Of a stretch of DNA of 4,747 nt, positions 1 to 3,000 are shown piece by piece. Source of the DNA: a virus (lineage: Duplodnaviria; Heunggongvirae; Uroviricota; Caudoviricetes); IMG/VR virus record IMGVR_UViG_2671180556_000011; one strand, given 5' to 3'. The position numbers were made by a program. Each line of letters begins with the position of its first letter. Within the stretch, counting starts at the first letter, position 1.

Positions 1-3000
1 AGTACGAGGTTCACTATGGCTCGCATCGAACAGGAAGTGATGATTTTGTCTGGGGGGAGTAACAGTCGTTTAACCCCAGAATAATCCCGTAACTGAGGTC
101 GCTATTGGCGGCCTTTTTTGTATCCGCGCCACGCCCGGCGCATATCAACCACAGAGCCTTTCGGGGGTGAGCTTACGGAGTGGTCAGTGTGACTTTCTCT
201 GTGGGCAGATCGCTCCCGGGCGTTGGCTCACCCACCCAAAGGAACGTCACGATGTTTGGTATTTTTGGTAAAAAAGCCCGCCGAGCGGCAGTGGAAATTA
301 AAAAGTTTGAGAAACGTGATCTGGCACAGGCGGTTATTAATGCTGCCTATCTGGTGGCCTATGCAGATGGTGAATGTGAGGCTTCAGAGAAAGTGAAGAT
401 CGAGCAGGTCTTGCGTAACCAGCCTGCGTTGTCCGCGTTTACGTCAGAAATTAATGCGATTAGCGCAACCATTATCGGTCAGCTGGATACGAACTTTAAA
501 ATTGGTCGTCGAGCGGCATTGCGTGAAATTGAAGATGTGAAACACGATACGCGTGAAGCGGAAGATGTGCTGGATGTGGCGGTGGCCATTGCGGAGGCAG
601 ACGGCGAAATTGAGCCGGAAGAGCGCAAGGTGCTGGAAGAGATTGCCGGTGTTCTGGGTCTTCGTCTGGAGAATCACCAGTGACGGTAAAACTGCGCCTG
701 GCTGTGGCTGCACTCCTGCTGTTTCTGGTGGTGATGGTGGACTTCAGCAGCCGGATAATGTCAGTGCTGGCTGACGGTGTGCTGGTGGCGGGTGTGGTGG
801 TTGTTGCTTTCCCGTTGCTGAAAAAGAAAGCATCAGGCGATTAGCAGGGTATCAGTTACCCGTTGAAATTTTTAAATGCCTCACAATTCAGGCGGTTGAC
901 TGTTGTCTGGTTTGCGGGGAGTTTGTTAAAAGAAACTGGCATGGTGAATCCCCCTGTGCGGAGGGGCAATCAGCAACTGGTGTTTTGTCACCGACCCTTA
1001 TCCTTTCTGTGCGGGTTCAGGTGCTGATACTGAACTCACCGGGAGGCACCCGGCACCATGCAATGGCACATAGCGCCACTCTCCAGCCCCTCTCCGGAGG
1101 GGCTGTTTATATTGATTTTGTCAGATGTGAGTAAACTCCTTATGGACTTTGTTGTTTTAGTCCATAAGGACATATTTGCAGAGTGCAACGGTTATTAAAG
1201 CATTCATTCAATACGTTATCTGTATTTGTAGGGCATTCCTGGCTGTTTTTGATTAAATTCCAGAATTTTTTATTGAATGGTACTACGTTGTAAATGGTTA
1301 CAGGTAGCACTTTGTTATTGAGCATGATACCTGTGTGAGTCAGTGTAAATATACTTTCAGGAGGTAAGAAAGCATCCGATTGATACCAGATTATTAATTT
1401 TATTTTACTCCATATGACTGAAAAAGATATTCCGCATGATGGCTGGATAACTGTATCAATCACAATCCACTTCATTTAGTTTCCTTGTTTATGTCTTGCT
1501 GGTGATGTTCTGAAAAGTATAAATGATATTTTTGAATGTAAACCATAGAGCAGAATTATTTTTCTGATGTTGTTTATTGTTTATTTAAATGCAGGGTGGT
1601 TTATATCTCGTCTTGTAGTTTACCCATGCATATCTGCTTGATGATGAGGTTTTTATTTAAGGTATGGTTTTGTGTTTTTTCTGTATTACATGTCAGGTAT
1701 TTTAAAGAATTATTTTTCAGATGGTGGAAAGAACCATGGCATTTAAACACTATGATGTTGTCAGGGCGGCATCGCCGTCAGACCTTGCGAAACGACTGAC
1801 ACAAAAACTGAAGGAGGGGTGGCAGCCATTTGGCAGTCCGGTGGCCATCACGCCCTATACCCTGATGCAGGCCATTGCGGCGGAAGGTGATGTCACCACA
1901 CCTGTGGTGGTGAAGCCGTCGGATGGAGAAGGCGCAGTTATCAGCACCACCAGCAACCCGGAGTATTACTTTGTTGTTGCCCTGGCCGGGCAGTCAAACG
2001 GTATGGCGTATGGTGAAGGGCTTCCGCTGCCGGAGACATATGACCGTCCGGACCCGCGTATTAAACAGCTGGCGCGTCGCAGCACTGTCACGCCGGGTGG
2101 TGCGTCCTGTAACTACAATGACATTATTCCTGCGGACCACTGCCTGCATGATGTTCAGGATTTGAGTAAGTTTTCACACCCGAAAGCCAGCGCAGCTCAG
2201 TATGGATGCGTGGGGCAGGGATTACATATCGCGAAGAAATTGTTGCCGTTTATTCCGGCGAATGCCGGTATTCTTCTGGTTCCGTGCTGCCGTGGTGGTT
2301 CTGCATTTTTGGCGGGCGATGAAGGTACCTTCAGCGAATCCACCGGCGCAAGCGAGACCTCGGCACGCTGGGGTGTAGATAAGCCACTGTACAAGGACCT
2401 GCTTACCCGTACTCAGGCCGCACTGAAGGCTAACCCTAAAAATATTCTGCTTGCAGTGGTCTGGATGCAGGGCGAGTTTGATTTGAAACAGGGTGCATAC
2501 GCCACTCAGCCGGGGCTGTTTGATTCCATGGTGGAAAAATATCGTTCTGACCTGTCGGAATTCGGAGGTCAGTGTCTCGGGGGCTCTCCGTCATCGGTTC
2601 CCTGGATTTGTGGCGACACGACCTACTACTGGAAGCAGACTTATTCTTCGCAATACGATGCGGTGTATGGTGCATACAAGACGAAATCCGCAAAAAAAAT
2701 CTTCTTTGTGCCGTTTATGACGGATGAAAACGGGCGAAATGTGGGTACCAACGAGCCGTCAGAAGATCCGGATGTTGCGGATATTGGGTATTACGGAGCC
2801 GGTGGTCGAACGGACGCCAAAACCTGGACGACGGCCGACCGTAAAACGCATTTTGGATCATGGGCACGTCGTGGGATTATTTCCGACCGTCTGGCAACGG
2901 CGATTCTTGTGCATGCCGGGAGAACCGCTGAATTCATTACCGGAAAACAGCCTGATACGGTGAAGCCCACCGGACCTTCCGGTGAAGGTACGGAGAGAGA

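Follow-up and report, generated by a model that had tools for sequence, protein, structure and literature searches.

Bacteriophage P1 carries a small operon, tciABC, whose counterpart in P7 is terB-upf69.4-upf69.6. In both phages, a gene for a TerB-like protein is followed by an overlapping gene for a 54-aa peptide of the DUF3927 family and then by a third coupled gene, tciC, which starts at the tciB stop and encodes a 35-aa protein with a single transmembrane (TM) helix. The P1 genes tciA, tciB and tciC were non-essential in a CRISPR interference (CRISPRi) screen, and the operon was lost in nearly half of the P1-subgroup-1 phage-plasmids tested. TerB itself has been described as an amphitropic, membrane-associated protein with TerC as its partner. 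Here we analysed a stretch of 4,747 nucleotides from a tailed virus (Caudoviricetes; IMG/VR record IMGVR_UViG_2671180556_000011), referred to in its full length as the window, that contains a gene for a TerB-like protein and a coupled gene for a 54-aa hydrophobic peptide at positions 252-844. The initial annotation of this DNA had proposed the two genes as a candidate module. They are an ordinary member of the known phage accessory pair tciA-tciB, first named in P1, present in P1 and P7 and routinely annotated. With a little better than even confidence, we read tciAB as a membrane-partnered TerB accessory module.

The window pair is homologous to the P1 and P7 genes and resembles them in size and arrangement, the TerB-like proteins being 141-144 aa long. 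TciA of the window is 40.8% identical to that of P1 and 51.7% identical to that of P7. The corresponding values for TciB are 46% and 44%, and the peptides have the motif VDF(T/S)S..(M/L)S.L.DG in common. The loci differ in three respects. First, P1 and P7 have tciC, but in the window no ORF (open reading frame) was found between tciB and the small RNA (sRNA) gene STnc100. Second, the P1 and P7 genes overlap by 1 nt and use an ATG, whereas the window has a GTGA overlap. Third, the P1 pair lies between tRNA genes, upstream of ban, whereas that of the window occupies the cargo slot of a late operon. The GenBank records of P1 and P7 already mention similarity to genes of cryptic prophages of enterohaemorrhagic Escherichia coli (EHEC). 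We also found the pair in the lambdoid phage JLK-2012, under the names tciA/tciB, in a Klebsiella phage, in the N4-like podophage Pollock and in jumbo Machinavirus phages of Erwinia and Salmonella.

According to profile searches, TciA belongs to the TerB family. Residues 26-138 match Pfam TerB (PF05099) with an E value of 8.1e-15 and 55.6 bits, against a cut-off of 24.4, and the protein also matches the solved structure of Klebsiella TerB (2JXU; E 7.7e-8) and PHROG 632 (E 4e-68). All three matches bear out the TerB-like assignment of the initial annotation. Further matches, to DjlA and DUF533, were weak and fell below the curated cut-offs. TciA contains two acidic D-G-x5-E motifs (D39..E46 and D117..E124), which in TerB constitute a putative ligand or metal site: the segments ADGECEASE (38-46) and ADGEIEPEE (116-124) align with SDGVSSEE and SDGNFDDDE of 2JXU. 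Residues D39, E46, D117 and E124 are invariant in a nine-sequence alignment in which identity falls as low as 27%. The median ratio of non-synonymous to synonymous substitution rates (dN/dS) of tciA, calculated by the Nei-Gojobori method, is 0.055. AlphaFold2 run on the single sequence gave an all-helical model of low confidence (predicted local distance difference test score, pLDDT, of 56). Together, these data indicate that TciA is a small, soluble TerB-domain protein, probably all-helical, that keeps both acidic motifs.

The 54-aa peptide, which had been described as unannotated, is likewise a member of known families. TciB matches DUF3927 (PF13064) over residues 3-51 of 54, with an E value of 1.4e-20 and 73.5 bits against a cut-off of 25, and PHROG 1470, 'TciB-like', with an E value of 1.4e-25. 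RefSeq names the two products 'tellurite resistance TerB family protein' and 'DUF3927 family protein', and GenBank phage records use tciA and tciB. The motif (V/I)DF(T/S)(S/G)(K/R)xMSxLADGVLV is shared by 66 distinct TciB homologues; in the window peptide, the conserved amphipathic segment VDF(S/T)S(R/K)xMSxLADG stands between two hydrophobic stretches. A search for homologous proteins with TciB returned only close DUF3927 entries from E. coli, and tblastn of the peptide against the phage collection returned nothing. The latter result is probably due to the low-complexity filter, since DNA searches, hidden Markov models (HMMs) and pattern scans gave many homologues.

We considered whether the small ORF could be a chance open frame, a reading to which its GTG start, shortness, strong hydrophobicity and non-conserved Shine-Dalgarno (SD) sequence would lend themselves. 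The comparative data speak against this. Besides the DUF3927 match, the median dN/dS of tciB is 0.24 (Nei-Gojobori, 866 sequence pairs), and of the 72 close relatives with complete downstream sequence, 69 have an intact gene for a peptide of 52-57 aa. Its start position matches that of homologues starting with ATG. The peptide is kept across lambdoid prophages, P1, N4-like phages and jumbo phages, even in those cases in which TciA is only 27-40% identical; in Pollock, TciB is still ~50% identical, though TciA is down to ~27-30%. The chance-frame reading, to which we attach a negligible probability, is refuted by these data. The small ORF of the initial annotation is thus nearly always intact in close relatives, and sequence comparison indicates that tciB is a real gene under purifying selection. 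A mosaic joint was also observed inside tciB: the first ~36 residues are common and are followed by one of three C-terminal halves, VAGVVVVAFPLLKKKASGD, VCGIVVLLWPVIKRNSLHNA or VVGIVVVLFPLVKKDMPGS. The tciA alleles joined to these three variants are near-identical, with a synonymous substitution rate (dS) of ~0.17.

To describe the junction between the two genes, we compared homologous pairs from all fetched loci, which had been searched with HMMs built from the TciA and TciB alignments. In the window, the GTG at 680-682 overlaps the tciA stop codon, TGA, at 681-683 (...caGTGAcg), as the initial annotation had stated; the tciA ATG is at 252. This junction is widely kept. The gap between the genes is -8 to +3 nt in 104 of 106 homologous pairs. 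Among the 106 are 69 pairs with GTGA (-4), one with ATGA (-4) and 27 with TAATG or TGATG (-1, a 1-nt overlap). Conservation of the GTGA overlap is highest among the close relatives, where 74 of 75 have it. Moreover, tciA is present directly upstream in all 80 viral contigs found via TciB.

The SD sequence of tciB gave a different picture. The GGAG claimed for it is present at 668-671 (+), 8 nt before the GTG and within the Leu-Glu codons of tciA, but it is poorly conserved: among the 48 distinct junctions compared between homologous pairs, an SD core of 4 nt located 4-12 nt upstream occurs in only 8. In a predicted RNA fold of positions 640-720, the SD and the GTG are paired in a hairpin that is no better than those of shuffled sequences (z-score 0.40). 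According to these alignments, the conserved expression feature of tciB is the stop-start junction and not the SD. That the tight junction is kept while the SD is not favours coupling by termination and reinitiation. TciB would then be translated mainly by ribosomes ending on tciA, and not via a strong ribosome-binding site of its own, and TciA and TciB would be made together.

The topology of TciB is less clear-cut. The peptide had been described as two hydrophobic helices with a KKK tail, and indeed it has hydrophobic maxima at about residues 7-20 and 33-47 and a tail of K48-K50. The segment between the maxima has a high hydrophobic moment, with D21, R25, S28 and D32 on one helical face. Basic residues are found at both ends (K4 and R6; K48-K50), which, by the positive-inside rule, suggests a hairpin with both termini in the cytoplasm (N-in/C-in). 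The two-helix description is plausible, but an AlphaFold2 model that gives a single helix, described below, does not agree with it.

A small hydrophobic peptide encoded upstream of a holin might also act in lysis. We considered that TciB is a holin-, antiholin- or Hok-like peptide restrained by TciA, as in a lysis-timing or toxin-antitoxin-like system. Toxin and antitoxin genes, too, typically overlap by their stop and start codons, and in lambdoid prophages tciAB does precede the holin gene within the late operon. Nevertheless, DUF3927 was the only Pfam match of TciB at E <=0.1, with no match to a holin, Hok or other toxin family. P1, P7, Pollock and the Machinavirus phages are without an annotated lysis gene within 1.2-1.5 kb on each side of the pair. 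In addition, the P21-type holin is complete in the window, and related prophages carry a full set of holin, lysozyme and Rz genes. A lysis or toxin-antitoxin role is thus very improbable.

To see how TciA-like genes are accompanied in bacteria, we fetched 47 bacterial TciA-like loci, from Enterobacterales, Pseudomonas, Aeromonadaceae, alphaproteobacteria and others. The DUF3927 HMM found the peptide in 18 of these 47. When family membership was disregarded, a strongly hydrophobic ORF of 30-100 aa was found at -10 to +12 nt downstream of 47 of 57 TciA-like genes. By comparison, these loci contain 1022 other ORFs that are 100 aa or longer, and only 21 of them have such a neighbour. The coupled partners other than typical DUF3927 peptides included divergent DUF3927-like peptides in Pseudomonas and TM peptides of 41-50 aa in alphaproteobacteria. 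A further Pseudomonas partner is 67-73 aa long and has one N-terminal TM helix, a GTGA overlap with TerB and a Cys-containing tail with the motif C..YG.QT.R.T..A..VGCMV...GW.PR.E.R. It occurs in phage AF (locus L005, 1632-1853) and in prophages L021, L025-L032 and L044, where it starts 4 nt before the TerB stop. No Pfam family was found for this 67-aa partner, for the divergent DUF3927-like peptides or for the TM peptides of 41-50 aa. In Vibrio phage vB_VpaP-MS02 (L007), a gene for a TerC/Alx-family membrane protein (78-1097) lies directly upstream of the TciA-like TerB gene (1201-1626), and no TciB-like peptide was found downstream of the latter. The regular pairing of phage TerB with a small membrane ORF coupled by a stop-start junction may be new.

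The presence of a coupled hydrophobic ORF in 47 of 57 cases, drawn from several unrelated families, leads us to read TciB as a membrane partner of TerB. In the module that we propose, TciB would be an inner-membrane protein, perhaps the N-in/C-in hairpin suggested by its basic ends, that holds or positions a peripheral TciA at the inner membrane. We infer both the TciA-TciB interaction and the membrane location of TciB from sequence. The two proteins would amount to a split version of the membrane-tethered arrangements of TerB-TerC and DjlA. TerB of the terZABCDEF operon is like TciA in domain family, size and the two acidic D-G-x5-E motifs, and it has been described as membrane-associated and as interacting with a membrane partner; the Vibrio phage pairs TerC with a TciA-like TerB. 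By contrast, TerC is a multi-pass protein and not a 54-aa peptide, and the sequence relation is distant (E 7.7e-8). In DjlA, a TM helix next to a TerB-type domain keeps that domain at the inner membrane, and this anchor is part of the same polypeptide, whereas that of tciAB would be a separate, coupled product.

Since the pair has no recognisable promoter of its own and occupies an stx-type cargo slot in the late operon of this lambdoid prophage, its expression probably accompanies that of the late genes. A consensus scan of the + strand over positions 1-1800, a crude method, gave no sigma-70-like promoter; the earlier description of the pair as a self-contained cassette is therefore unsupported. 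The membrane-partnered module would be dispensable for plaque formation. More speculatively, it may condition or monitor the inner membrane or the ion state of the infected cell, and so serve in stress protection or superinfection exclusion.

Several observations weigh against the membrane-partnered module. AlphaFold2, given a 31-sequence alignment, modelled TciB as one continuous helix over residues 2-52 with a pLDDT of 90, and not as a hairpin. An exhaustive phmmer search, which returned 53 clusters, found no natural TerB-DUF3927 fusion. The Machinavirus TciA proteins are 70-76% identical to that of the window, but their TciB peptides are only 28-32% identical and are without D21 and D32. 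Moreover, one tciA allele was found with three C-terminal variants of TciB. Such uncoupled divergence weighs against a tight, specific complex, in which co-evolution might be expected. The loci behind the 47-of-57 count are phylogenetically related, and the Fisher p-value therefore overstates their independence, although the effect is still large. Finally, the crudeness of the consensus scan leaves room for a weak or non-sigma-70 promoter. Separately, two long candidates for a fusion, P0133 (176 aa) and P0168 (119 aa), were rejected, as they look like frameshift or mis-called artefacts.

The initial annotation had raised a sensor-plus-effector arrangement, and we weighed it as an exclusion or abortive-infection cassette in which TciA senses membrane perturbation by a phage and releases or activates TciB as a pore-forming or depolarising effector. 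TerB domains occur in the validated defence systems Bunzi, Shango and Dionysus, in the last of which a TerB-like protein is accompanied by a membrane protein that forms pores. The position of tciAB in a prophage cargo slot and the conserved polar stripe of TciB (D21, R25, S28 and D32 on one helical face) are also in keeping with such a cassette. In addition, in Pseudomonas phage AF and a Pseudomonas prophage, the TerB gene and its membrane ORF adjoin a repressor-like gene, a typical site for exclusion genes. The likeness to Dionysus (DinA-DinB-DinC), Bunzi and Shango lies in the combination of a TerB-like protein with membrane or pore proteins, for which a membrane watch has been proposed. These systems reside in the defence islands of bacteria, whereas the carriers of tciAB are phages. 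Dionysus, compared by its described architecture only, has a MAEBL-TM protein and a four-TM pore former that set it apart from the window.

Other findings count against this reading. A PADLOC search gave no significant match, TciA matching only PDC-S48 weakly (E 0.012) and TciB nothing. The Shango helicase/ATPase and the Dionysus proteins DinA and DinC, the latter with four TM helices, are absent from the window, and the promoter scan of positions 1-1800 found nothing from which the pair could be expressed in a lysogen. The pair, or its TerB half, is also found in phages reported or classified as virulent, namely Pollock, the Machinavirus phages and PMBT3, the last called lytic by its authors. 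Such carriage does not sit well with a suicide module and argues against a purely prophage-encoded abortive-infection cassette, though superinfection exclusion would still be compatible with it. Overall, our analysis does not favour the sensor-plus-effector defence reading, which we regard as unlikely. Carriage by virulent-classified phages fits better with a function of use to the phage while it infects, for instance in conditioning the membrane, excluding superinfecting phages or countering host defences.

Counter-defence was considered in the form of mimicry or poisoning of host TerB systems by tciAB, the targets being phage inhibition by the Ter operon, Shango, Bunzi or Dionysus. In its favour, the pair is found in accessory regions of both temperate and virulent-classified phages. 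The Pollock pair lies among DNA-metabolism genes, between those for a dUTPase and an N4 gp24-like ATPase, and the pair is carried by jumbo phages, which Dionysus targets. However, the idea is purely inferential. TciA is only distantly like canonical TerB (E 7.7e-8, 2JXU), and E. coli prophages carry the pair in abundance although the bacteria that harbour them are often without such systems. We therefore regard it as improbable. A broader proposal is that tciAB is a minimal TerB membrane-surveillance device, carried by temperate and virulent phages and made up of a peripheral TerB sensor and an interchangeable small TM partner, that excludes superinfecting phages or neutralises TerB-based host defences. 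The candidate partners in such a device are DUF3927, the 67-aa Pseudomonas family, TciC-like peptides and TerC. This proposal is a tentative one to which we give a low probability. If it is true, TerB with a coupled small membrane ORF, as in the 47 of 57 loci, defines a broader two-gene class.

The database names suggest yet another function, resistance to tellurite or colicin or inhibition of cell division. 'Tellurite resistance' and 'TciB-like inhibition of cell division or resistance to colicin' are names given by homology only, and they trace to a homology remark in the P1 record. Neither the window nor the annotated related E. coli prophage loci contain terZ, terA, terC, terD or terE, and the authors of the PMBT3 study argue that a lone terB is without the other genes needed for resistance. 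The literal meaning of the annotation is thus highly improbable as a description of what the pair does.

The features of the window are listed in Table 1. The window covers the cargo region in the late operon of an E. coli-type lambdoid prophage. Its 5' end is not Q but the last part of a 69-aa hypothetical ORF. The placement of the pair in the slot between Q and lysis agrees with the gene order of related E. coli prophages, even though Q is not at the window start. In those prophages, the pair is preceded by an antiterminator, a DNA methyltransferase, tRNA-Ile/Arg and two small ORFs, and is followed by (IraM), the esterase, DUF1378, DUF826, holin, lysozyme and Rz. In Shiga toxin (Stx) lambdoid phages, stxAB has the corresponding position, after the antiterminator, methylase and tRNA region and upstream of STnc100, a nanS-p-like esterase and the lysis genes; the tciAB cargo is unrelated to Shiga toxin. 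The esterase, DUF1378, DUF826 and P21-type holin of the window are standard late genes of the Stx-phage type.

Table 1. Annotated features of the 4,747-nt window
Feature	Position	Strand	Remarks
69-aa hypothetical ORF, 3' end	1-60, stop at 58-60		Ends in ...YEVHYGSHRTGSDDFVWGE before the stop, as WP_000498121.1
Terminator-like hairpin	95-115		Terminator scan
tciA	252-683	+	143-aa TerB-family protein
tciB	680-844	+	54-aa DUF3927 small membrane protein
STnc100 sRNA gene (RF02076)	910-1114	+	Neighbour, outside the module
IraM anti-adapter paralogue, 111 aa	1140-1475	-	NCBIfam E 3.8e-48, over cut-off
NanS-p-like esterase	1721-3697		DUF1737 + SASA + DUF6645
DUF1378	3834-4028		Pfam
DUF826	4054-4344		Pfam
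P21-type holin	4420-4635		Pfam
Further ORF	Start 4641		Runs off the window

The strong terminator that had been described as closing the pair belongs to STnc100. A terminator-like hairpin is indeed present at 1084-1105 and, with its T-rich tail, was detected by the terminator scan, but it is the 3' end of this separate sRNA. The Rfam match to STnc100 covers the full model (1-206), with 137.6 bits against a gathering score of 47 and an E value of 2.5e-31. The sRNA gene starts 66 nt 3' of tciB in the window; in Stx2 phages, STnc100 lies 75 nt 3' of stx2B (PMC12370729). A 2026 preprint ties STnc100 to the PasD sRNAs. A 54-aa ORF with a TTG start overlaps STnc100 at 863-1027 (+). In RNA sequencing and ribosome profiling of EHEC, ribosome coverage varies widely among STnc100 copies (RCV 0.04 to 3.2), which suggests that some copies may be translated.

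Downstream of STnc100, iraM lies in an island of 30-35% GC (the low-GC region spans about 1100-1720), whereas the flanks have 50-58% GC. This contrast suggests that the gene was acquired as a separate insert. In some related prophages, iraM is missing or interrupted by an IS30-like element. IraM is known to stabilise RpoS.

Upstream of the pair, ARAGORN found no tRNA in positions 61-251, and STnc100 was the only Rfam match. In several relatives, similarity to the window starts at position 96, directly after a tRNA array that is absent from the window. A tRNA gene lies within 3 kb of the TerB gene in 9 of 56 loci (L001-L004, L009, L010, L015, L022 and L051). The tRNA-flanked tciAB loci include those of P1, P7, JLK-2012, the Machinavirus jumbo phages and several prophages; the window pair is without tRNA. 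Genes for tRNA-Asn and tRNA-Thr lie just upstream of the pair in both P1 and JLK-2012, which hints at a shared, mobile tRNA-tciAB block.

With respect to E. coli, part of 252-844 was found in 2363 of 5426 complete genomes, and at least 80% of it in 803 of the 5426, in up to 8 places per genome. Many of the partial matches come from degraded prophages in which a truncated DUF3927 remnant persists and TerB is missing. Two examples are L218 (2469-2600, 43 aa) and L219 (2534-2620, 28 aa), neither of which has TerB upstream. Both loci have the same antiterminator-tRNA layout, and that of L218 is DLP12-like (essD, rrrD, rzpD).

As a discovery, this locus adds little: the pair is named, its products belong to Pfam and PHROG families, and it is annotated in hundreds of genomes. 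Its interest lies in what it represents. Among the known natural TerB modules, tciAB, with two genes for proteins of 143 and 54 aa, is about the smallest, in a domain family that also occurs in the Ter operon, in DjlA and in several validated anti-phage systems. It is very common in E. coli prophages, at the site that in Stx phages is taken by Shiga toxin. The rule that TerB genes of phages and prophages are almost always coupled, stop to start, to a small hydrophobic ORF, whose family varies, points to a definite interaction that can be tested. Small size, abundance and the viability of the P1 knock-downs would make tciAB a tractable system for the role of TerB at the membrane.

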